A DNA stretch of 43,294 nucleotides from a virus (Duplodnaviria; Heunggongvirae; Uroviricota; Caudoviricetes), in IMG/VR virus record IMGVR_UViG_2609460053_000008. One strand, given 5' to 3'. A program made the position numbers and the translations under genes. This document shows, in pieces, positions 2,604 through 41,505 of the stretch. Under the pieces are notes generated by a model that had not been told where the DNA came from, made no database searches, and worked only from the letters and a program-made list of their open reading frames with translations. Every line of letters begins with the position of its first letter. The first letter of the stretch is position 1.

Positions 2604-3656
2604 TCAGGAGCCGATATATTCTGGTTTCATATCTGTCAGTGTCGTTTTATACGCCTCATATAATTCTCCCAGATGTGGTCGTGCAGCATTCAGCGTATTT
2701 TCCAGAGCAATAAATTTTTGTTCTGCTTCTGGATCACCTGATGAAGGCAGGTCATTTATCATCTTCTCAATACGGGCAATAGCATTGAGACGGTGATGAC
2801 GCTGAACCACTTTTCCTTTAAGTTCTGTGTAGAGAGCGCCAAGTGTATTTTTATGATCTTCCACTTCCTGGCGAAGTGCTGTTGTTTCTCCGGTGCTTTG
2901 TGCCTGCTCAATACGTTCACGGAAAGCACTGATCCAGTTTTCCCCGGCATCCTGCTCAATAATTGTTGTTTCACGTTCCGCACGGCAGGCGGATGTGTTT
3001 TTATGTTCCTGAACCGGATTAATGATTTTTTCCTGTGGTTCGTCCAGTTCGTCCCGGGTGTACACTCCAAGAATCACTTCAGGGCAATAAAGGCGCGCCC
3101 AGCGTTTCAGAGCCAGATAGGCAAGCTGCTGGCGAGGATCATCGGCCCATAACGTTGAGTTACGTGTTCTGGCCTGCGCCAGAAGTAACTCCAGTACGCG
3201 TGGCTTGCTCTCTCCGCGTAGTGTTGCCTGGACGCGAACACCGATCCCGTTTTCATCGGCCAGCTTCCAGCCAGGTACACGATATTCTTTCCCCTTGTCG
3301 TTCTTCCTGATTTCAAATTTCCCGATAATTTTTTCCCACGGCCCGAACCAGTCATATTCAATACGCCCGGTTAGCGGCCCACGAGTACTGATTACGGCAT
3401 TAACCAGTTGCGCTTCATATCCGAGCACACCATTCACAACGAAAGTTTTCTGAGCTACTGCGTAAGGGTTCATTTGCCACTGCATCGCCTGCATGGTGAT
3501 GGCCATGCAGTCTGATGGATTTCCCCGGAGGTGTTCCGGTACAGTAGCCATGCCGGAAGCCATTACCTGGGAAAATGTCTGAATTGCAGCCAGGGACTGA
3601 GGGCTGAAAACCGCAACATTAGAGTTAATATTTTCTTGTTGAGTTAATTCGTTCAT
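2604..3656 (-). CDS. Putative single-strand annealing recombinase (RecT-like position, downstream of recE)
   Basis: 350 aa; start sits 12 nt after recE stop in the same operon; family assigned by position only, sequence not confidently matched. Confidence 0.5.
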   Translation of the reverse strand: MNELTQQENINSNVAVFSPQSLAAIQTFSQVMASGMATVPEHLRGNPSDCMAITMQAMQWQMNPYAVAQKTFVVNGVLGYEAQLVNAVISTRGPLTGRIEYDWFGPWEKIIGKFEIRKNDKGKEYRVPGWKLADENGIGVRVQATLRGESKPRVLELLLAQARTRNSTLWADDPRQQLAYLALKRWARLYCPEVILGVYTRDELDEPQEKIINPVQEHKNTSACRAERETTIIEQDAGENWISAFRERIEQAQSTGETTALRQEVEDHKNTLGALYTELKGKVVQRHHRLNAIARIEKMINDLPSSGDPEAEQKFIALENTLNAARPHLGELYEAYKTTLTDMKPEYIGS

Positions 3657-7245: not shown

Positions 7246-7416
7246 TTAAAGTTCGTGTGCCATCTGGTCTTTTTCGGCACAGATTTCACTACAATATTTT
7301 TTCATTTCCGTCGTTGGTATAACTCCACGCATGAAATGAAGTGGTCTTGTAATGATTTTGCTCTCTTCAATTTCTTTATTGCAAAGGTGATAAGCACATT
7401 TTATTTTCTTAGTCAT
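7246..7416 (-). CDS. ydaE: YdaE-like small zinc-binding protein (56 aa)
   Basis: Hand-translated (below the ORF-track cutoff): [56 protein letters not shown]; start overlaps kilR stop (TAATG). Confidence 0.55.
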   Translation of the reverse strand: MTKKIKCAYHLCNKEIEESKIITRPLHFMRGVIPTTEMKKYCSEICAEKDQMAHEL

Positions 7417-7637
7417 TACCATGACTCCGCCTTTACAGGTAAACCATCACGACCGAGGAAGACTCTAATCATGCAGTCAGAAATGCATGTTTTTGTAGTC
7501 AGGCTACGAATATAAAGTTTTCGCTTTTTAATATTGTTTGCCGAGGCGATATATGTCCGACCTTCATGAAGAACATAATCGCCAGGGGTCACACACTGAC
7601 GTGGTATTTCATCAGTTCCGAAGTGATGAGCAATCAT
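7416..7637 (-). CDS. kilR: KilR-like cell-division inhibitor
   Basis: [44 protein letters not shown] matches recalled Rac KilR. Confidence 0.7.
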
Positions 7638-8032
7638 AATTATCTCCATTTTTACAAATGAATTTTGTCGATGCGGTGCCTGGTGCCTCCAGGTGACGTT
7701 AACCAGTTAACAATTAACGCCGGATAATCCACCCATAACACTGATGCTTTTAACTGTGCCGCGTGCGCTTAGCCGCATTCACCGCATCACAAAATTCACT
7801 TTAAAAAGGGGCGGCAGGGCAGCCACGGAGTAGAACTGATGCCGCCAAAGACTACACATAGCAATGTCGTTATTTACAACCGGAGGCGCACTCCCACCAT
7901 TTAAATTTAACAGACAAGACCGACTCTTTATGAATACCGGAAATGCGCCTTCGTGTTGTGCGCCTGTCTTTTTACCACTTCAGGCTCGGTGGTATACTGG
8001 AGTTCTCACACAACCAGTAATAAGGTATTCCG

Positions 8033-8227
8033 ATGGATAATAAAGACAAAGCCTGGCTACTTGCTTTAGCTTTCAGCATCAGATCGCAGCGAGAAACAAC
8101 TCATCAAGAATTTTTCTCGGAAATCGAGAATGCTGAGAATGAGTTTTTGTCACTACTCAATGAACGTGATGCTAAAAAAAGCGCCGATTCACTTAAGGCT
8201 TGGGCGAAACTAGGCTCTTCAAAATAA
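8033..8227 (+). CDS. Hypothetical protein (64 aa) in immunity region
   Basis: ORF with upstream GGTATTCCG then ATG; convergent with the 8193-8411 gene. Confidence 0.35.
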   Translation: MDNKDKAWLLALAFSIRSQRETTHQEFFSEIENAENEFLSLLNERDAKKSADSLKAWAKLGSSK

Positions 8228-8411
8228 TTGCTTCTGTAGCGGCATGAACAACTGTTTTTGCCGCCTCTTCAACTTCCTTGTCTGGACGACCAGCCTTTAC
8301 TTTTTCTGCAATGACATCCAGCACAGTTGGAAGAACCTTGCTAATAAGCATGGCTGCCACATCTTTGCTGCACAATTGACCGTTAATAACAACCAGATCT
8401 TCACCAACCAT
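8193..8411 (-). CDS. Hypothetical protein (72 aa), first gene of leftward transcript
   Basis: ATG preceded by AGGGGA at about 8 nt; AACAC-N5-GTGTT operator-like palindrome at 8604-8618 upstream. Confidence 0.45.
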   Translation of the reverse strand: MVGEDLVVINGQLCSKDVAAMLISKVLPTVLDVIAEKVKAGRPDKEVEEAAKTVVHAATEAIILKSLVSPKP

Positions 8412-8654
8412 CTTTTTTCCCCTTAACGCCGGGTGGCGGAACGTTTTATCTACTGCGCTTTGTATCAATCAACAACTGCCGTCATGTTCGTATGCCTCAG
8501 GCTGGCTACTTAGCCCTGTTCAGTGGCTGGATAACTCGAGGTATTGTCCTGCCGTTCTCTGGTGGGGCGTTGTTTGGATATGCTTATTAAACACAATGCG
8601 TTTTCTTATGTCAACACGAAATGTGTTTTATGGTGAGTGTCATATGATGATGGT

Positions 8655-8681
8655 ACAAAAAAGCCCGCTGATAGCGGGCTG
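8655..8681 (-). terminator. Rho-independent terminator downstream of the repressor gene
   Basis: Hairpin AGCCCGCT-GATA-AGCGGGCT followed on the minus strand by a T-run. Confidence 0.6.
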
Positions 8682-8710
8682 ATTGGCATATTACTGTGAT
8701 AGCAAGATCA

Positions 8711-9130
8711 TTACTCCGGTGGGGGATTATCTTTAAGCCTGCCTCTCAAATATTTTTCTACATACTCATCGATTTCTTTTAGCCGGACTTCAAATAGCTC
8801 AATCATTCGTTGTTGTTCTGAGCCCGGTAGCTGGTTAAACAACTCAAGAAGTTTTCGTTGGGATTCATTTAACCACAATTCAGAAGATTCCTGTTCTCCA
8901 AATAGGAGCTCAGGAGGAGATATGCCAAGTGCCTTTCCCAATACGACAGCGTCATGCACTCCAACATTTCTGCTGCCCGCCTCATAGTTACCTATACGCG
9001 ATTGCGTCCATCCGCAGATTTCAGCAAGTTTTCCTTGAGATAAACCAAGCTTCTGCCTGCGCTCTTTAAGACGCATTGCAATTTTGTCATTGAGCCTACT
9101 AGCGGCAATTTTTTCGTTTTCTTTTTCCAT
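8711..9130 (-). CDS. Prophage repressor, HTH XRE family, no S24 peptidase domain
   Basis: 139 aa; HTH LKERRQKLGLSQGKLAEICGWTQSRIGNYEAG; divergent from the Cro-like gene; no Ala-Gly / Ser...Lys autocleavage module. Confidence 0.8.
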   Translation of the reverse strand: MEKENEKIAASRLNDKIAMRLKERRQKLGLSQGKLAEICGWTQSRIGNYEAGSRNVGVHDAVVLGKALGISPPELLFGEQESSELWLNESQRKLLELFNQLPGSEQQRMIELFEVRLKEIDEYVEKYLRGRLKDNPPPE

Positions 9131-9141
9131 TGCATCCTTGT

Positions 9142-9202
9142 ATCACGAATCGTGATTTATATAAAACACAAAACAGCTTGACCATATAACACAAGGTGTG
9201 TT
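9142..9202. promoter_or_regulatory. Divergent promoter/operator region: palindromes ATCACGAATCGTGAT (9142-9156) and AACACAAGGTGTGTT (9188-9202); candidate -35 TTGACC at 9178-9183
   Basis: Perfect inverted repeats between divergently transcribed repressor and cro-like genes. Confidence 0.5.
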
Positions 9203-9226
9203 TAAAATTGTCATCGGAGGTTTTCA

Positions 9227-9469
9227 ATGAACAAAATTTCAACATATCGAAAACAGCTTGGGCTGTCTCAAAGACAACTTGCTGTTCAGTTAGGGTGGAT
9301 ACAAAGCCGACTGGCAAATTACGAAGCAAATTTTCGTACCCCTGGACTAGAGGAGTGCAGAAAAATTGTTTCTACCCTTAATCGGCTTGGCGCTCATTGT
9401 GGACTTGACGATGTATTCCCCCCAGACGGTAAGCATAGCGAAAACAGCATAGGAGCGGTTGATTCATGA
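9227..9469 (+). CDS. Cro-like HTH regulator (YdaS-like)
   Basis: 80 aa; HTH YRKQLGLSQRQLAVQLGWIQSRLANYE; GGAGG RBS; divergent from repressor. Confidence 0.7.
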   Translation: MNKISTYRKQLGLSQRQLAVQLGWIQSRLANYEANFRTPGLEECRKIVSTLNRLGAHCGLDDVFPPDGKHSENSIGAVDS

Positions 9470-9888
9470 AAATCAGGCATGAGCACATCGAATCAGTGTT
9501 GTTAGCCCTGGCAGCCGAAAAAGGGCAGGCGTGGGTCGCTAACGCAATTACTGAAGAATATCTGCGCCAGGGGGGCGGCGAATTGCCCCTTGTACCAGGC
9601 AAGGACTGGAACAATCAGCAGAATATCTATCACCGTTGGTTGAAAGGTGAAACGAAAGCGCAAAGGGAAAAAATTCAGAAACTGATCCCTGCGGTTCTGG
9701 CAATTCTTCCGCGCGAGCTGCGTCACCGACTCTGCATCTTCGATACCCTGGAACGCCGTGCATTACTGGCGGCGCAGGAAGCGTTGAGTACGGCAATTGA
9801 TGCGCATGATGATGCAGTCCAGGCCGTTTACCGGAAAGCACATTTCAGCGGTGGTGGGTCGCCCGGCGATTCTGTCGTAGTGCATTGA
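9466..9888 (+). CDS. YdaT-like regulatory protein
   Basis: 140 aa, translationally coupled to the cro-like gene; N-terminus MKIRHEHIESVLLALAAEKGQAWVANAITEEY resembles Rac YdaT. Confidence 0.55.
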   Translation: MKIRHEHIESVLLALAAEKGQAWVANAITEEYLRQGGGELPLVPGKDWNNQQNIYHRWLKGETKAQREKIQKLIPAVLAILPRELRHRLCIFDTLERRALLAAQEALSTAIDAHDDAVQAVYRKAHFSGGGSPGDSVVVH

Positions 9889-12312: not shown

Positions 12313-12736
12313 ATGGCAAAAGTATTTACACAAGAAGAGCGGGAAAAAAATCAAGGGACAGGTTGTTGAGCTAGTACGCCGGAGTGGGCGCGAGACGTTA
12401 CGGCAACTGGAAGCCAAGACAGGTGCGACAAGATATCTGATGAGCGTTCTCGCAAGAGAGCTGGTTGCCAGCGGCGATGTATACAACTCCGGCTACGGGT
12501 TATTCCCCTCTGAACAGGCGCGTAAGGACTGGCAAAACGCCCGCAAAAAACTCTCGAGGGCAAAGGTGAAGAAACCTGCTGTGGTTGATCCGGACCTTAT
12601 CTGGTCATCACCTGACGGAGAAATACGTCGCTACGACAGTCGCCTAAACATAATCTGTCGCGAGTGCCGGAAGAGTGAAGCTATGCAGCGTGTACTGGCT
12701 TTCTATCAGGGTAATTTTCAGGAGGCGGTACTGTGA
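12313..12736 (+). CDS. Hypothetical protein; RBS-backed ATG at 12313 is out of frame with the long ORF (A7 tract 12344-12350), or an internal start at 12440
   Basis: GGAGG-ATG at 12313 reads MAKVFTQEEREK then stops at 12367; long frame has no start codon between 12298 and 12440. Confidence 0.4.
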
Positions 12737-13426: not shown

Positions 13427-13595
13427 TTTTGGTTCAACTAAATACAACGTCAGTTTTGAAGAATGGCATGAACTGTTAATGGACTATGCAGAGTTACGTG
13501 GTGGCAGTGCTGCTGATGCTGAAGCATGGCGTGATGATTATGAAGCAGAAAAAACTCCGGTCGAAGCATATTGTGATGAGTGGGGCGATGAATGA
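13419..13595 (+). CDS. Small acidic protein (58 aa)
   Basis: Hand-translated MADFGSTKYNVSFEEWHELLMDYAELRGGSAADAEAWRDDYEAEKTPVEAYCDEWGDE; start overlaps upstream stop (ATGGCTGA), stop overlaps next start (ATGA). Confidence 0.45.
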   Translation: MADFGSTKYNVSFEEWHELLMDYAELRGGSAADAEAWRDDYEAEKTPVEAYCDEWGDE

Positions 13596-13849
13596 GCGAG
13601 GTTAATTATCAGGAAGGGCATGAAACGGCGGGGCAAGCAAAAACAGTGGCATGGCGATATCGCTACGTGAAAAAAAAGGCGTTACGGACTTTCAGGGGAA
13701 GTAGTGGTCTGGTGACTGGAAATATGTACCGAAAAAAGAGGATTGTAACGACAGGCCGAACTATGAAATTCAGGCCTTATTCACTGCCCCGCCAGTCCCG
13801 GTTACATCAGAAGAACTGGTTAAAGCTGTGCACTTTTATGAACAACTAA
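13592..13849 (+). CDS. Questionable ORF; alternative frame is more protein-like but is interrupted by TAG at 13702
   Basis: Start coupled to upstream gene; product highly basic; see findings. Confidence 0.25.
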   Translation: MSEVNYQEGHETAGQAKTVAWRYRYVKKKALRTFRGSSGLVTGNMYRKKRIVTTGRTMKFRPYSLPRQSRLHQKNWLKLCTFMNN

Positions 13850-14078
13850 AACGCGAAAATCCACCAGCATCCGGAAACCTGATTACAGATTCCCAGATAA
13901 GGCAATGAGCTACCTGGCGCAGAACGGGCTGATAAGTATGGGGAATGTTTTACGATGAATATTTAGACTAAAGAGTTTGTAACGCTATGTAAGTGATTTT
14001 TTCTGGTTTAGATATTTATATATCCGGCCAAATTGAGGTGTGTTTAAATGTAATTGCACATTGATTGTAGGAGGAATA

Positions 14079-14258
14079 ATGAAAAACGCATTGCAGTTTT
14101 TGTTTGTTGCGTTCTGGTTGTTCGTATCATGTATGCCCATCATCTTCACAGCAAGGTATATGGAAAAAGTTGATGTTTTGATATTAATATTTGGATATAT
14201 AAATGCCCTTTTTTTAGGGGTGTTCATGGCGGTCATGTGCATTGAATACTGGCGGTAA
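14079..14258 (+). CDS. Small hydrophobic membrane protein (59 aa, two predicted TM helices)
   Basis: AGGAGG RBS 5 nt before ATG; MKNALQFLFVAFWLFVSCMPIIFTA...VLILIFGYINALFLGVFMAVMCIEYWR; AT-rich island. Confidence 0.5.
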   Translation: MKNALQFLFVAFWLFVSCMPIIFTARYMEKVDVLILIFGYINALFLGVFMAVMCIEYWR

Positions 14259-14460
14259 ATACAGCGAACGCCATTGGTTTAGTTGGATATTTACTGTGCC
14301 GGACAAAAACGGTTTGCGGGGAAATCTTAGTTAAGTAGAATGACTGCGGGTGCTTGAGGCTATCTGTCTCAGGCATGAACACCAAAAGGCAGATAGAGAA
14401 AAGCCCCAGTTAACATTACGCGTCCTGCAAGACGCTTAACATTAATCTGAGGCCATATCT

Positions 14461-14520
14461 ATGCGACACATAGAGATTAGCCTCTTACGGACCGAAAGGT
14501 CAAGGAGAAGCAGGCTATGA
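14461..14520 (+). CDS. mok: mok-like leader ORF overlapping the hok start
   Basis: 19-codon ORF MRHIEISLLRTERSRRSRL ending in TGA that overlaps hok ATG (CTATGA). Confidence 0.4.
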   Translation: MRHIEISLLRTERSRRSRL

Positions 14521-14672
14521 AGCAGCAAAAGGCGATGTTAATCGCCCTGATCGTCATCTGTTTAACCGTCATAGTGACGGCACTGGTAACGAGGAAAGAC
14601 CTCTGCGAGGTACGAATCCGAACCGGCCAGACGGAGGTCGCTGTCTTCACAGCTTACGAACCTGAGGAGTAA
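14517..14672 (+). CDS. hok: Hok/Gef family type I toxin (51 aa)
   Basis: MKQQKAMLIALIVICLTVIVTALVTRKDLCEVRIRTGQTEVAVFTAYEPEE; hallmark TRK(D/S)LCE motif; matches recalled HokD/RelF. Confidence 0.8.
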   Translation: MKQQKAMLIALIVICLTVIVTALVTRKDLCEVRIRTGQTEVAVFTAYEPEE

Positions 14673-14742
14673 GAGACCTGGCGGGGGAGAAATCCCTCGC
14701 CACCTCTGATGTGTCAGGCATCCTCAACGCACCCGTACTTAA

Positions 14743-14761
14743 CCCGCTTCGGCGGGTTTTT
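14743..14761 (+). terminator. Rho-independent terminator after hok
   Basis: CCCGC-TTCG-GCGGG hairpin followed by TTTTT. Confidence 0.65.
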
Positions 14762-14946: not shown

Positions 14947-15159
14947 GTGGAAAAAATAAAAAAACTATTTAGTAGCAAATACGCAGTCATACGTCGTGAT
15001 GACTTGTCAGTTATAGTCGAAATGGATTACTTCCCTGAAACCACAAAATCAATGATGTATCGTAATGGTCGAAAGGCAATTTTTTTACCGATGAGGGTAA
15101 GTGACATTATGGGAAATGATAAACTGCTGGATGAATTGCGAGTCAGAGCATCCTGTTAG
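14947..15159 (+). CDS. Hypothetical protein (70 aa, GTG start)
   Basis: GGAGG 5 nt upstream of GTG; preceded by AT-rich promoter-like region. Confidence 0.4.
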   Translation: MEKIKKLFSSKYAVIRRDDLSVIVEMDYFPETTKSMMYRNGRKAIFLPMRVSDIMGNDKLLDELRVRASC

Positions 15160-15230: not shown

Positions 15231-15830
15231 ATGGCGCATATACAACTGGTCAAACAAACCTCTTCCGGATTACTTCTCCCGGCGACGCCGGAGAGTTGCG
15301 ATTTTTTGCATCAAATCAAAATAGGTGAGTGGATACACGCAGACTTTAAGCGTGTGCGTAACTACGCATTCCACAGGCGTTTTTTCAAACTCCTGCAGCT
15401 CGGATTCGATTACTGGACTCCGGTCGGTGGGGCGATCACGCCTCGCGAACGAGAACTGGTGTCTGGTTTCGTTGATTTCCTATGCGAATCAGTAGGTCGG
15501 GAACATACGCCAGCCCTGAGTGATGCTGCAGAGCAATACCTTAATACCGTTGCGACGCGTAGAACCCGTGATACGGCATTGCTCAAGTCATTTGATGCCT
15601 TCCGTGAATGGGTAACCATTCAGGCCGGATTTTACACCGAGCATTTTTATCCGGACGGTAGCCGTGGGCGTCGGGCAAAATCCATCGCGTTTGCGAATAT
15701 GGACGAAACCGAGTTTCAGCAGGTTTATAAAGCCGTACTGAATGTGCTGTGGAACTGGATCCTGTTCCGTAAATTTTCCTCTCCGGAGGAAGTCGAAAAT
15801 GTGGCCGCGCAGCTGCTGGAGTTTGCGTAA
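15231..15830 (+). CDS. Nin-region protein (DUF1367/YbcN-like)
   Basis: 199 aa; position upstream of YbcO-like and Q genes; family recalled, not verified. Confidence 0.45.
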   Translation: MAHIQLVKQTSSGLLLPATPESCDFLHQIKIGEWIHADFKRVRNYAFHRRFFKLLQLGFDYWTPVGGAITPRERELVSGFVDFLCESVGREHTPALSDAAEQYLNTVATRRTRDTALLKSFDAFREWVTIQAGFYTEHFYPDGSRGRRAKSIAFANMDETEFQQVYKAVLNVLWNWILFRKFSSPEEVENVAAQLLEFA

Positions 15831-16120
15831 TGGTGGATTTACGTAAAGCGGCGCGGGGGCAGATGTGCACCGTCAGAATTCCTGGCTACTGCAACCACAA
15901 TCCCGAAACTTCTGTGCTGGCGCATTACAGGCTGGCGGGGACGTGCGGAACAGCGACAAAACCACACGATATGCAGGCAGCGATTGCCTGTAGCTCATGC
16001 CACGATTTAATCGACGGGCGGGTAAAAACCAGCGATTACACCAAAGAAGAATTACGCCTGATGCATGCAGAAGGTGTTTTTCGCACACAAGAAATCTGGA
16101 GAAAGGAAGGTTATTTATGA
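15830..16120 (+). CDS. YbcO-like putative nuclease (DUF1364), Cys-rich
   Basis: MVDLRKAARGQMCTVRIPGYCNHNPETSVLAHYR resembles DLP12 YbcO; ATGG start overlap with upstream stop. Confidence 0.6.
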   Translation: MVDLRKAARGQMCTVRIPGYCNHNPETSVLAHYRLAGTCGTATKPHDMQAAIACSSCHDLIDGRVKTSDYTKEELRLMHAEGVFRTQEIWRKEGYL

Positions 16121-16671
16121 TTTACCCAACAAATACAGGCAAAAGCGGGGAACACCTTCGTCTCACCACGCTGGAAAGTGTCTGGATTCAGGGAAAACTG
16201 CGCATGTGGGGGCGCTGGTCGTATATTGGCGGCGGTAAGACGGGAAATATGTTTAACCAGTTGCTGACCTCTAAAAAGCTGACAAAAACGGCAATTAACG
16301 AGGCGCTCCGGAGGATGAAAAAAGCAGGTCTGGACAAACCTGAACTTGAGGCTTTTTTGCGGGATATGATTAACGGCAAGCAAAAGAGCTGGCTGGCACA
16401 TTGTACTGATTCAGAGGCATTAATAATCGACAGGGTTATTGGAGAAGTGTTGGCAGAACACCCAGGATTGATTTGTATCCTCCGGCAACGATATGAAGGG
16501 AGGGGGATGACTAAGCGAAAAATGGCTGAATTGCTGAATGATTCACACCCTGAGTGGTGTTACGCCACGTGCCGTAATCGCATAGATGCGTGGTTGAAAA
16601 TGGCAGAGTTTATGCTCTATCTGCCGATGCGTGATGCATTCTCTTCCGGGGATTTAAAAACCGTCTGTTGA
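16117..16671 (+). CDS. Late-gene antitermination protein Q-like
   Basis: 184 aa; ATGA overlap with the upstream gene; immediately followed by a PR'-like promoter and a short transcript terminator; upstream of lysis genes. Confidence 0.55.
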   Translation: MIYPTNTGKSGEHLRLTTLESVWIQGKLRMWGRWSYIGGGKTGNMFNQLLTSKKLTKTAINEALRRMKKAGLDKPELEAFLRDMINGKQKSWLAHCTDSEALIIDRVIGEVLAEHPGLICILRQRYEGRGMTKRKMAELLNDSHPEWCYATCRNRIDAWLKMAEFMLYLPMRDAFSSGDLKTVC

Positions 16672-16697
16672 CTCAATCTGTTATCCGGGGCTATATT
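16668..16697 (+). promoter_or_regulatory. PR'-like late promoter (TTGACT-N18-TATATT)
   Basis: Near-consensus -35/-10 overlapping the Q stop codon. Confidence 0.55.
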
Positions 16698-16758
16698 CCT
16701 CACGCGCCAGCAAAATCTGGCGTCGGGATTAGCACCCCGGATGTTTACGGAGCGATAT

Positions 16759-16780
16759 GAGACGCGCCCGCGTCTTTTTT
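16759..16780 (+). terminator. tR'-like terminator about 75 nt downstream of the late promoter
   Basis: GACGC-GCCC-GCGTC hairpin followed by TTTTTT. Confidence 0.6.
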
Positions 16781-16944
16781 CATATCGTTTGCACAGTCAC
16801 ATTCGCGATTTATGGCGGGCTGTGTGGGGGAGCCGAAAGGCTCGCCGGTTTCCGTACCCGGTAGTGCTAACCCCGCACAGTTCGCCACCACGATGATTAG
16901 CACCTGACGGTGGCGATAATGTCCAAATGTACGGAGTTATCGTT

Positions 16945-17526
16945 ATGGCTACTCAGATTTCTGTCGAAACTCTTTCCCCAATTACACACAACCAAATTCC
17001 CGTTATCACTACCGAGTTACTGGCACAGCTTTACTGTACCGAGATCAACAACATCAAAGTAAATTACACCCGTAATTCCGAGCGTTTTGTTGAGGGTAAA
17101 CACTTTTTCAAGGTTGTTGGTGATGAGTTGAAAAATTTGCGGGTTACTTTAAGTAACTCACAAAATTTGCAACCATCTTTAAGAGGGTTACAAATTTCCC
17201 CGAAAGCCCGCTCCCTCATCCTCTGGACAGAACGCGGAGCAGCCCGTCATGCCAAAATGCTCGAAACCGATCAGGCGTGGGATGTGTTCGAAAAACTGGA
17301 AGACTGCTATTTCAGACAAAAGGATCCGTCAGCGCCAGTTTCATGCCAGAAAAGTTACGACACGCGAGTTCTCTGTTATCAGCAAGGCGGTGTCACTGTT
17401 TCCACAATTCAGTTGCGGGATGATGATATTGTTATTTCCCTTGAGTCATGGCTGGAACTGGCGAGAGCCAATGGTTGGTTTGTTGTTCGCAGAGATAAAC
17501 TGGTGGAAAGGCTGATGCAGCTTTAA
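16945..17526 (+). CDS. ORF6N/KilA-N-like domain protein, putative antirepressor-like
   Basis: N-terminal ITTELLAQLYCTEINNIKVNYTRNSERFVEGKHFF resembles the ORF6N domain; sits in the Q-to-lysis slot. Confidence 0.4.
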   Translation: MATQISVETLSPITHNQIPVITTELLAQLYCTEINNIKVNYTRNSERFVEGKHFFKVVGDELKNLRVTLSNSQNLQPSLRGLQISPKARSLILWTERGAARHAKMLETDQAWDVFEKLEDCYFRQKDPSAPVSCQKSYDTRVLCYQQGGVTVSTIQLRDDDIVISLESWLELARANGWFVVRRDKLVERLMQL

Positions 17527-39082: not shown

Positions 39083-41505
39083 TGGCGAAAAATGACTTTA
39101 AAGCGTTTGCAACTGATCGGAATGCCAATGTTATGTCGCAGGAGGAATGGGAAGCGTTGCCTGCGCTTTTATCCGGATTTACAGCAGGGAAAGCATCCAG
39201 TGCGCAGGTGAACAAAGCCATTCGACAGGCCAGCTTTATTGCTGCAGCTCTGGCCCAGTTTGTAAGTGACAAAACGCAACGGGATGTGCTTGATAATGGT
39301 GATCTGCCCGGTTTTGTTGAATTGCTTGGATCGGGGTTTGCTGTTGAATACCTGAGTCGCAAGAATCCGTTTGGTGATATCAAATCGGACGGCACGGTAG
39401 AACGCGCTCTTGAAAATCTGGGGTTACAGGATGTAAAAGCTGGTTCATTGAACAATCTGTACACTAACCATTCCCGTAGTGTCTTAATGGAATTGCCGTT
39501 ATTATTCCCGGACTACGATACGGTGCTGGCTGCTCAGTCTGGTGCGGAATATATGTATCCACAGGGATTTGTGGTGACAGGAGAAAAAATCTATCTGAGT
39601 TATACCGTTGAGCCAAAGCAGACACGGAACGTTATAGTTCAGTACACAACATCCGGCGAATATGAGGGATATTATTATGTCGATAATGGAGGTCGTGGCG
39701 TTGTCAGCGAAGGCCTTGTGGTGACAACGGATTACGGTGGATTACGTTTGTTCATGTCAGGAGAAAATGGATTACTGAAACAGTTTTCGCTTGATGGGGC
39801 AATTTCTGGTTCAGTATTGCCGTTAATTGATGAACATGATGTCGGTGTTTACAACCAGTTCAGCTATCGTAAAAACCGCTGGGTGGTTGAACAGTCAGCG
39901 CCGGAAGTGGGAGGCCTGATCACCCGCACAGTATTTGCGGTGTATGATTTTCAGTTTCGTCGGACAGGGACATTCACATTACCGTTGCATGATTCCGGAT
40001 ATATCACGGAAAGCACAGACAGCTATGCAAGACGCTTCACAAAACGTCAGGGAATTGCTGTGGGAGACGATTATATTGCCTGTTCTTATGGTGGCTATTT
40101 TAATACCGGGGCATCAGCCGGATTTAACCAGTTTCAGGGGGTTAAGGTCTTTTCTCCGGATGGAGTAAAGCAGCAGGAATCCATTCTTCATCCCCAAAAA
40201 ATGATAGATGTGCTTACCAGGCAGGGTTTTACACCTTCGCGCATTGAGAACGAAGGAATTTGTATTTCTGACGACGGCGGCAGTATATATTCGCTTTATA
40301 TCTTTCTGGAGCGTGGGTTACCACAGGCTTATCAGAAAGGAATTGTTCTGATGAAAGAGTTCAGTACTGGCAGAGATGCTATTGATTTTCGTCAGGCAGC
40401 CTGGTTGTACACGGGGTTTGATGTGTCTCATGCCAGTATTGGAACATTTCCCCGTAGTGCCCAGGGGTTGGTAAACCCGGTGTTGGGGACGGTATTCACA
40501 TCCCTGTCTGAAATTCTGGCATATATGCGTTCTGTGAGTCAGAAATGGTTTTGTCTGCATACAACCACGACACCGATTAAAGATCTGAGTGGAAATGACA
40601 TTCCTGCTGACAATTATGTGTTCATCAAGAATGCTAATAACCAGACATTCTATATAACGCAGGAGTCAGCTGAAGGTGGAATAAAATATAAAGCTGTCAC
40701 TACAGACAGCGGAGAATATGGTTTTCAGCGACAAAGAGAGGCAATCTGGTCCAATGTTATCACCATCGCACAAAAGAGCGATGGTGAGGATCAGTTTAAT
40801 CGTATTATCGCTGCCTCGAAAAGTGGTTCAGGTAAAAATCAGGATAAAATACTGGTAGTTGACCAACAGGCATCAGAGGGGAATAACACGCTGGTAATTG
40901 GCGGTGGTTCATCTGTGTTCAGGTCAGCGACAGTGATTGATTTTGCAACGAATCAGGATGCAAATGCCACAGGAGGAGAAAAGAGATGGCGCATAGATTC
41001 ATCAGGAAATCTCCGCCCTTATACAGATAATACGTATTCGATCGGTTATGCCTCATGGCGACCCGCACAGGTTTATTCAGCTACGGGAAGTATCAGTACA
41101 TCAGACCGGACTCATAAACAGGACGAAACAATTCTGTCGGATGCAGAAAAAAGGGTTGCCAGAAAGCTGCTCGGGTATATCTGTCGGTTCCGTTTCAGGG
41201 ATGCAGTGTCCAGCAAAGGGAACGCAGCCAGATGGCATGTAGGAGTGATTGCTCAGGACGTACAGAAGGTCTTCTCTGAGGAAGGGCTGGACGCTTTTGA
41301 TTACGGTATTTTGTGTCGTGATGAATATCCGGCGGAATATGAAGTGGTTTACGGGACTCGTATGGAGCTTGGTCCTGACGGACTCCTTACAATGGAAGAA
41401 TACGATACCGGAGAGCGCAAGCTGGTCAGGGAGGCTGGTGAAATAATGTCTGTAAGGAATGATGAGCTGCATTATTTCATGCTGGCATCGCTGTCTGGCC
41501 AGTGA
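39082..41505 (+). CDS. Tail fibre protein with C-terminal intramolecular chaperone (peptidase S74-like) domain
   Basis: 807 aa; C-terminal motif SDRTHKQDETI...RWHVGVIAQDVQKVF from 41101; start could be 39064. Confidence 0.85.
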   Translation: MAKNDFKAFATDRNANVMSQEEWEALPALLSGFTAGKASSAQVNKAIRQASFIAAALAQFVSDKTQRDVLDNGDLPGFVELLGSGFAVEYLSRKNPFGDIKSDGTVERALENLGLQDVKAGSLNNLYTNHSRSVLMELPLLFPDYDTVLAAQSGAEYMYPQGFVVTGEKIYLSYTVEPKQTRNVIVQYTTSGEYEGYYYVDNGGRGVVSEGLVVTTDYGGLRLFMSGENGLLKQFSLDGAISGSVLPLIDEHDVGVYNQFSYRKNRWVVEQSAPEVGGLITRTVFAVYDFQFRRTGTFTLPLHDSGYITESTDSYARRFTKRQGIAVGDDYIACSYGGYFNTGASAGFNQFQGVKVFSPDGVKQQESILHPQKMIDVLTRQGFTPSRIENEGICISDDGGSIYSLYIFLERGLPQAYQKGIVLMKEFSTGRDAIDFRQAAWLYTGFDVSHASIGTFPRSAQGLVNPVLGTVFTSLSEILAYMRSVSQKWFCLHTTTTPIKDLSGNDIPADNYVFIKNANNQTFYITQESAEGGIKYKAVTTDSGEYGFQRQREAIWSNVITIAQKSDGEDQFNRIIAASKSGSGKNQDKILVVDQQASEGNNTLVIGGGSSVFRSATVIDFATNQDANATGGEKRWRIDSSGNLRPYTDNTYSIGYASWRPAQVYSATGSISTSDRTHKQDETILSDAEKRVARKLLGYICRFRFRDAVSSKGNAARWHVGVIAQDVQKVFSEEGLDAFDYGILCRDEYPAEYEVVYGTRMELGPDGLLTMEEYDTGERKLVREAGEIMSVRNDELHYFMLASLSGQ

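Follow-up and report, generated by a model that had tools for sequence, protein, structure and literature searches.

The Gifsy prophages encode short (~136 aa) helix-turn-helix (HTH) repressors without a cleavage domain, GfoR, GtgR and GfhR, which remain uncleaved during induction and are released from DNA by small LexA-controlled antirepressors, GfoA, GftA and GfhA (Lemire et al. 2011, PMC3121763). DicA and RacR have been named as relatives of these repressors (PMC3121763); DicA, whose antagonist is Rem, has no Ala-Gly site (PMC10448788), and PaaR2 likewise carries no peptidase motif (PMC8630535). Here, we analysed the immunity region of a Rac-like lambdoid E. coli prophage integrated beside yebY, which is contained in a 43,294-nucleotide stretch of viral DNA (IMG/VR record IMGVR_UViG_2609460053_000008; the whole stretch is referred to as the window). 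We consider it likely that this region is a Rac-like prophage immunity switch, built from a non-cleavable repressor of the DicA/GfoR/GtgR class, its own operators and two candidate antirepressors. The observations concern sequence features, family relationships, comparative conservation and synteny, from which we infer DNA binding, promoter positions, the acting antirepressor and the inducing signal.

The repressor gene (8711-9130, minus strand) encodes a protein of 139 amino acids, within the ~135-150 aa typical of the DicA/GfoR/GtgR class, whose only Pfam match is an XRE/HTH_3 domain at residues 21-75 (E 4.7e-13). Peptidase_S24 gave no Pfam match at E values up to 0.1, a PDB sequence search returned matches to the HTH only, and the ~55 residues after the HTH contain no S24 domain with a Ser/Lys dyad region. 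The first-pass annotation, made from the letters alone, had described the protein as an XRE-type repressor without a LexA/CI-type autocleavage domain, and these searches agree with it. RecA-stimulated self-cleavage in the style of lambda CI could be argued from an Ala-Gly pair at residues 51-52 and from the relatedness of the HTH to the one in mEp213 CI, a cleavable coliphage repressor; however, this sole Ala-Gly pair is situated within the HTH and not in a linker, the peptidase region is missing, and members of the family are not cleaved (PMC3121763), leaving self-cleavage highly improbable. Without a cleavage module, induction must proceed via an antirepressor that inactivates the intact repressor. 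The earlier proposal that induction needs an antirepressor or another route is thus supported, this being the known behaviour of the repressor's family (PMC3121763, PMC10448788).

In place of the S24 peptidase domain, the repressor carries a C-terminal segment of ~50-55 amino acids (LLELFNQLPGSEQQRMIELFEVRLKEIDEYVEKYLRGR) that is kept in relatives and is probably helical; a single-sequence structure model of the whole protein was all-helical, with a predicted local distance difference test (pLDDT) score of 49, and was not used further. BLASTP aligned the repressor with DicA over its full length, including the C-terminal segment (29% identity, E 2e-15). The segment LLELFNQLPGSEQ... is common to the window repressor and the Gifsy repressor of LT2 (46% identity over 35 aa), the Gifsy repressors share its LFNQLPxxE stretch, and the class pattern LL.LF..LP..EQ... 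is present. Furthermore, the segment is 72-78% identical in Citrobacter phage Chris1, phage vB_Apl-pPE4 (pPE4; L001, PP818812.1) and phage Kp4865-4, all of which keep it although their HTH domains differ.

Subsequently, we delineated the sites on which such a repressor would act. The palindrome AACAC-N5-GTGTT occurs exactly twice in 43 kb (8613-8627 and 9188-9202; 0.07 expected), both times within ~100 bp of an end of the repressor gene, and none of 100 shuffles reached two copies. The broader pattern A[AT]CAC-N5-GTG[AT]T was confined to three places (0.18 expected; none of 100 shuffles reached three), and repeat finding grouped the sites at 8613-8627, 9142-9156 and 9188-9202 as one family (D1). 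The copy at 9188-9202 had been located correctly in the first-pass annotation, whereas the second had been placed at 8604-8618, 9 nt away from its actual position. The same annotation had read the site at 9142-9156 (ATCACGAATCGTGAT) as a different palindrome overlapping the repressor start; it is instead a variant of the same operator, and its edge is 12 nt upstream of the repressor ATG (9130-9128), with 11 nt between them that include an AAGGA Shine-Dalgarno sequence.

Together with two degenerate copies, these sites form two arrays in relation to promoters predicted by eye. On the right, predicted PR (9178-9206, plus strand; TTGACC, 17 nt, TTTAAA) would serve the cro-like gene and ydaT, and predicted PRM (9156-9184, minus strand; TGGTCA, 17 nt, TATAAA), which is weaker, would serve the repressor. 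The perfect palindrome OR1 (9188-9202, AACACAAGGTGTGTT) occupies the predicted PR spacer and overlaps the PR -10 hexamer by 2 nt; an OR2-like site (9165-9179, AACACAAAACAGCTT), of which only the left half-site is present, overlaps the PR -35 hexamer by 2 nt; and OR3 (9142-9156) takes in the last base of the predicted PRM -10 hexamer as well as the point where the repressor transcript is expected to begin. The OR2-like site is proposed from its sequence and the 23-bp register, and is the weakest of the five. On the left, predicted PL (8586-8614, minus strand; TTGACA, 17 nt, TTTAAT) is near-consensus and would serve a 72-aa open reading frame (ORF), DicF, kil, recE and recT. Its -35 hexamer is overlapped by 2 nt by the perfect palindrome OL2 (8613-8627, AACACGAAATGTGTT), and its spacer holds OL1 (8590-8604, AACACAATGCGTTTT; one mismatch), which overlaps the -10 hexamer by 2 nt. 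Operator centres lie 23 bp apart within each array (9149, 9172 and 9195 in OR; 8597 and 8620 in OL), and the register is identical at PL and PR, with one operator in the spacer (OL1, OR1) and the next at the -35 hexamer (OL2, OR2). Such a mirrored register is hard to get by chance. The predicted -35 hexamers, TTGACC for PR on the plus strand and TGGTCA for PRM on the minus strand, appear to overlap almost fully at 9178-9184; transcription from the two promoters would then begin at points just ~65 bp from each other, a shorter distance than the ~82 bp between the PR and PRM start sites of lambda.

A comparison among relatives provided a further view of these sites. A scan of species-representative genomes yielded five loci with repressors 43-66% identical to that of the window. 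The recognition helix (QSRIGNYE or near) is kept in two Citrobacter loci (L004 and L005), Chris1 and an Enterobacter locus (L007), whose repressors are 57-66% identical. In these four, every NACAC-N5-GTGTN in 6-45 kb of sequence lies at one or the other end of the repressor gene. Each has one copy on the OR side and one on the OL side, except that the Enterobacter locus has two on the OL side. The N5 spacer bases vary among these loci while the arms persist (GACAC...GTGTC in Enterobacter), and TTGAC stands beside an operator in L004, L005 and L007 as well. Conversely, the motif is absent from pPE4, Phytobacter L008, Kp4865-4, SPN3UB, Gifsy-1 and Qin, where other HTH sequences accompany other palindromes. 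Moreover, the repressor HTH shares 58% identity with its counterpart in the self-cleaving CI of coliphage mEp213 (L017), a phage in which A[AT]CAC-N5-GTG[AT]T recurs at three OR and three OL sites spaced 22-24 bp apart (2431-2492 and 3226-3286), single operators mixing AACAC and ATCAC halves. The arms therefore track the recognition helix whatever the C-terminal domain, which is strong indirect evidence that the sites are the repressor's operators. Most likely, the repressor binds as a dimer to these 15-bp operators, A[A/T]CAC-N5-GTG[A/T]T. As in lambdoid OR/OL arrays, several inverted-repeat copies would thus cover predicted divergent promoters flanking the repressor gene and are conserved together with the DNA-binding domain; the OR/OL-like role assigned earlier to the palindromes appears to hold, judging from the identical PR and PL register, the arms kept in relatives, their change with the HTH and their recurrence in mEp213.

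Cleavable CI proteins of this kind are also present in ECP1, mEpX1 and VT1-Sakai. The mEp213 CI has an S24 peptidase domain (annotated LexA family), whereas the window repressor has the short DicA-type segment instead. One DNA-binding and operator specificity thus seems to have been joined to two different induction modules; the induction module may be exchanged independently of immunity specificity, and cross-immunity between the window prophage and mEp213 is conceivable.

From this arrangement, we propose the following operation of the switch. The repressor, as the CI analogue of the short non-cleavable DicA/GfoR/GtgR class, would keep the leftward operon (DicF, kil, recE and recT) silent through OL1, which covers the spacer and -10 hexamer of PL, and OL2, at its -35 hexamer. 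OR1 would block PR, and the half-site OR2, which abuts the PR -35 hexamer and the overlapping PRM -35 hexamer, may need cooperative filling. OR3, lying over PRM, would provide negative autoregulation and a point of action for Cro. The divergent cro-like gene (9227-9469, plus strand; 80 aa, HTH_3) encodes a recognition region (LGWIQSRLANYEA) close to that of the repressor (CGWTQSRIGNYEA), the two proteins being 45% identical over 42 aa of the HTH including the recognition helix (BLASTP); because the recognition helices are so near, the cro-like protein presumably uses the same operator sites.

What would release the repressor is a question with two candidate answers in the window. The first is the ORF6N-domain protein (16945-17526, plus strand; 193 aa), which had been nominated as an antirepressor in the first-pass annotation. 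It is 54% identical to STM2616/AnrP of Gifsy-1 (E 3e-57), occupies the same position after a Q-like gene and falls with AnrP in PHROG 2379. Between the two genes we found a promoter-like site straddling the Q-like stop codon (16668-16697, plus strand; TTGACT, 18 nt, TATATT; Q-like gene 16117-16671), which is conserved with Gifsy-1 as the counterpart of PisrK in a pR'-like position. It is followed, all on the plus strand, by the small RNA isrK (16704-16780, with a terminator at 16759-16776; Rfam 74.4 bits), an overlapping c4-a1b1 target element (16691-16743; 49.8 bits) and a C4-type antisense RNA (16808-16892; 78 bits), each above its Rfam gathering threshold. An orf45-like ORF of 31 aa (16812-16907, plus strand; MAGCVGEPKGSPV...) overlaps the C4 RNA, and its start resembles that of Gifsy-1 orf45. 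A plain pR'/tR' pair at 16668-16776, which would have argued against the ORF6N candidate, was considered and dropped once Rfam identified the isrK/C4 module. The order of isrK, c4-a1b1 and C4 is that of Gifsy-1, and the ORF6N gene belongs to an AnrP/isrK module; on this analysis its nomination appears reasonable. Several details differ from Gifsy-1: the orf45-like ORF is shorter and stops 38 nt before the ORF6N ATG, whereas Gifsy-1 orf45 overlaps anrP; no isrJ match follows the ORF6N gene; and the protein departs from AnrP over its C-terminal third. A more distant relative of the arrangement is c4-icd-ant of P1 immI.

In Gifsy-1, IsrK turns on translation of orf45-anrP (Hershko-Shalev et al. 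2016, PMC4825925). When AnrP is expressed ectopically, transcripts of the antQ operon rise and the prophage is induced, and deletion of the isrK promoter abolishes stationary-phase phage release (PMC4825925). By analogy, the ORF6N protein would be transcribed from the promoter after the Q-like gene under isrK/C4 gating, providing an SOS-independent trigger, and Q-dependent read-through would give positive feedback. One possibility is that this protein is the only antirepressor, freed by isrK/C4 on signals outside the SOS response, for example in stationary phase or under oxidative stress. The complete isrK-C4-orf45-anrP module conserved with Gifsy-1 speaks for it, as do the Gifsy-1 experiments and the absence of a LexA box on the other route, and the C-terminal 67 aa weakly resemble the Rem family through phrog_340 (E 6.8e-6), a PHROG also matched by Rem of Qin. 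AnrP is not known to bind a repressor directly (PMC4825925), however, and mitomycin C induction of Gifsy prophages requires the small dinI-linked gene rather than the ORF6N homologue (PMC3121763). In addition, the ORF6N N-domain is widespread in Shiga toxin (Stx) phages with cleavable CI, and a terminator separates the gene from the Q-like gene upstream of it, so that derepression would probably have to come before its full expression. The link to Rem also remained faint: when a narrow Rem hidden Markov model was run against 834 window ORFs, the ORF6N C-terminus ranked first, but with an E value of 0.19, and none of the best 120 of 5155 ORF6N homologues carried the Rem Pfam domain, only PF10543. 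Finally, no ORF6N homologue was found in the closest repressor relatives, genome-wide in Chris1 and within the stretches examined of pAEv1818, Kp4865-4 and SPN3UB. On balance, exclusive action of the ORF6N protein is possible, with the evidence tilting noticeably against it.

The second candidate, which the first-pass annotation had missed and which has at least equal standing, is a 70-aa ORF with a GTG start (14947-15159, plus strand; phrog_1813) directly upstream of the irsA/DUF1367 homologue (15231-15830). The Gifsy operons are ordered LexA box, dinI, antirepressor, irsA homologue (PMC3121763, PMC5322425), and gftA has also been described with a GTG start (PMC3121763); Gifsy and the window thus both have a small GTG-start ORF directly upstream of an irsA homologue, the window DUF1367 protein being 55% identical to that of Gifsy. 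Homologues of the 70-aa protein were present in only 10 of 50,697 phage records, among them each of the four phages whose repressors are the closest homologues over the full length. In Chris1, pAEv1818, SPN3UB and Kp4865-4 the homologue comes directly after dinI, ahead of which lies a LexA box of 25-27.5 bits; as in the window, the irsA/DUF1367 homologue comes after it in pAEv1818 and SPN3UB, and in Chris1 and pAEv1818 it also begins with GTG. The 70-aa ORF would accordingly hold the Gifsy gfoA/gftA slot and correspond to the second gene of the LexA-controlled dinI operon of its relatives.

The DinI of SPN3UB (L014, 8703-9237) is 98.7% identical to that of Gifsy-1 in LT2 (L010, 6666-7232), and the gene that follows it is the phrog_1813 member gp59 in SPN3UB and GftA in Gifsy-1, in step with the repressor C-terminal type. 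This difference looks like a cassette swap of repressor-antirepressor pairs.

In the window, dinI is absent upstream of the 70-aa ORF. Its place and that of the LexA box are taken by a hok/sok cassette (14348-14672; sok Rfam 106.7 bits, hokD 14517-14672), a terminator (14741-14758) and an AT-rich stretch, an organisation also found in pPE4 and in Salmonella ZC-S1_prp, the latter with the same hok 3' end and AT-rich arrangement (76% mean column identity). With a LexA position weight matrix made from 23 E. coli sites, no convincing LexA box was detected in the window; the best site scored 14.7 bits (14247-14266), ~700 bp upstream of the 70-aa ORF. SOS control by this site, TACTGGCGGTAAATACAGCG, was rejected, since 36 of 300 random sequences (12%) attained the same score. 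The site overlaps the stop codon of a small hydrophobic ORF (14040-14258) and lies ~100 bp upstream of the sok match. The exact pattern CTGT-N8-ACAG had a single match in the window, at 40694, which is chance level. Replacement of the LexA box and dinI by hok/sok implies that direct SOS wiring has apparently been lost. Furthermore, no promoter was recognisable on the strand of the 70-aa ORF.

BLASTP and tblastn detected no similarity between the 70-aa protein and GftA or Rem, and hhalign of its family gave E 0.64 with GftA and E 0.046 (probability 1%) with Rem, from shallow profiles (Neff 1.4-2.3). Distant-relative searches started from Rem and GftA retrieved close relatives only and so provided no bridge between the families. 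A structure model (pLDDT 83) comprised four strands and a C-terminal helix and had no match in BFVD at E <= 0.001, and the family is named 'hypothetical protein' in every source.

These data bear on the possibility that the 70-aa protein is the sole cognate antirepressor and targets the conserved C-terminal segment of its repressor, with the ORF6N/AnrP homologue in some other role (late-stage reinforcement, action on other prophages or DNA binding). Its rarity, set against its occurrence in all four closest repressor relatives, is in keeping with this idea, as are its dinI-antirepressor-irsA slot with strong LexA boxes in relatives and its apparent exchange together with the repressor C-terminal type beside a near-identical dinI. 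Chris1 has the 70-aa gene and is without both the ORF6N homologue and isrK/C4, and for the induction of Gifsy phages by mitomycin C, the small gene linked to dinI is both necessary and sufficient (PMC3121763). The lost dinI and LexA box, the missing promoter and the lack of any sequence or fold link to GftA or Rem argue the other way, and co-occurrence with the repressor may partly reflect shared ancestry of adjacent genes. We regard sole action of the 70-aa protein as a serious possibility that falls somewhat short of an even chance.

A further scheme, less likely than not, can be put forward tentatively. Members of phrog_1813 would act as small antirepressors, specific to repressors whose C-terminus is of the KEIDEYVEKYLRGR type, and would mostly be wired to LexA and dinI; in the common E. 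coli prophage lineage to which the window belongs, hok/sok in place of the LexA-dinI promoter region would uncouple induction from DNA damage, so that only the isrK/C4-gated AnrP homologue, or antirepressors that co-resident prophages encode, could trigger it.

The reservations given above on the ORF6N protein, the 70-aa family and the LexA search weigh against the proposed immunity switch, as do several further results. The repressor matched the NCBIfam DicA model PRK09706 end to end, but at 57.2 bits, under the curated cut-off of 101, making it a DicA relative and not a DicA orthologue; orthology to RacR was rejected, as BLASTP to K-12 RacR gave E 2.0, that is, no detectable similarity. OR2 and OL1 are degenerate copies of the operator. 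A simple consensus promoter scan of the immunity region did not return the PR, PRM and PL hexamers and gave two unlikely sites instead, so the hexamers, read by eye, remain inferred. Lastly, a DUF977 gene (12313-12736) and a hypothetical early gene (13592-13908) are frameshifted in the RefSeq annotation of the identical prophage of strain FDAARGOS_1289, and the prophage may therefore be partly defective.

The two frameshifts and the missing LexA box would fit an element with no working induction route encoded in cis, whose repressor merely silences a partly defective prophage as DicA and RacR do in K-12. Derepression would then come from a stochastic Cro-like bistable switch, from host factors or in trans from antirepressors of co-resident prophages. 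Comparable behaviour is on record: DicA/DicC switches spontaneously and independently of Rem, with effects of urea and heat (PMC10448788), bistability has been described for PaaR2/YdaS (PMC8630535), and antirepressors act in trans between Gifsy and Fels prophages (PMC3121763). Nevertheless, the RefSeq annotation shows apparently intact structural, lysis and packaging genes, the two candidate antirepressor ORFs are unbroken and conserved across many genomes, and a near-identical element (pPE4) was deposited as a phage genome; we thus judge the absence of any route in cis unlikely. An immunity switch with a non-cleavable repressor and antirepressor candidates of its own remains our preferred reading.

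A tested 1.6 kb of the window is 100% identical to strain FDAARGOS_1289, in which the RefSeq gene order runs int, xis, ralR, recT, recE and kil on the leftward side; repressor, cro-like gene and ydaT in the centre; and rightward the O-like and DnaC-like genes, several small genes, hokD, the 70-aa ORF, DUF1367, DUF1364, the DUF1133 Q-like gene, the ORF6N gene and the lysis and morphogenesis genes. The immunity region is present at >=80% query coverage in 152 of 5426 complete E. coli genomes, and the exact repressor protein occurs on at least 1000 contigs, under generic names throughout ('helix-turn-helix domain-containing protein'). In pPE4, which is filed as an Actinobacillus pleuropneumoniae phage, ydaT, the 70-aa ORF and the ORF6N gene are 96-97% identical to those of the window, and recE, recT, kil and hok are present; its host assignment looks doubtful.

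The repressor transcript would end at an intrinsic terminator found by a terminator scan (8662-8680, minus strand; stem AGCCCGCT..AGCGGGCT, then a T run). On the other side of the switch, ydaT (9466-9888, plus strand) encodes a CII analogue 95% identical to K-12 Rac YdaT. In Rac, a YdaT box at the cro stop and ydaT start drives a reverse, PRE-like promoter (PMC11879457, PMC9986795). The pattern TTGATT-N6-AATCAG, at one mismatch from the published box, occurs twice in the window (0.23 expected): at 9459-9476 (TTGATTCATGAAAATCAG), spanning the ydaT start and cro stop, and at 2116-2133, just upstream of xis and int in a PI-like position. In the leftward operon, the small RNA DicF (7809-7860, minus strand; Rfam 60.9 bits, above gathering threshold) is located between the 72-aa ORF (8193-8411) and kil (7416-7637), and the repressor would consequently control a DicF-type cell-division regulator, like DicA in Qin.

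Comparison with the described systems places the locus among them. The backbone resembles that of Gifsy, with recE and recT on the left and, beyond the repressor, cro-like, cII-like, O, DnaC-like, irsA/DUF1367 and Q-like genes and the AnrP homologue; the HTH and operators are different, and hok/sok stands in for dinI and the LexA box. Qin DicA/DicC/Rem (PMC10448788, PMC3441716) shares with the window the full-length repressor similarity, a divergent cro-like partner and DicF in the repressed leftward operon, and the small ORF of the window follows hokD, where rem stands in Qin; the DicA operator Oc, TTGTTAGTCATAACTAACAA (PMC3441716), is unrelated to AACAC-N5-GTGTT. RacR/YdaS/YdaT of Rac and PaaR2/YdaS/YdaT of CP-933P (PMC11879457, PMC8630535) have the same layout of CI, Cro and CII analogues, but PaaR2 has operators made of other repeats (GTTTAGTAA-type), and in the window the repressor is not followed by toxin-antitoxin genes. 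The system is a member of a characterised class and, as a class, nothing unusual. Particular to this element are an operator family also used by cleavable CI, the joint presence of an AnrP-type candidate and a candidate in the Gifsy slot, and the apparent loss of LexA wiring.

Collectively, the findings leave the current picture of lambdoid regulation unchanged. The pairing with mEp213 offers a clean natural example of one operator and HTH specificity with two induction modules, and the analysis of the LexA-dinI slot suggests a testable function for an unannotated family of small proteins. As a member of the non-cleavable, antirepressor-controlled class, the prophage is predicted not to respond to DNA damage as lambda does; other signals, or prophages in the same cell, may act on it instead, which bears on predicting antibiotic-driven prophage induction.

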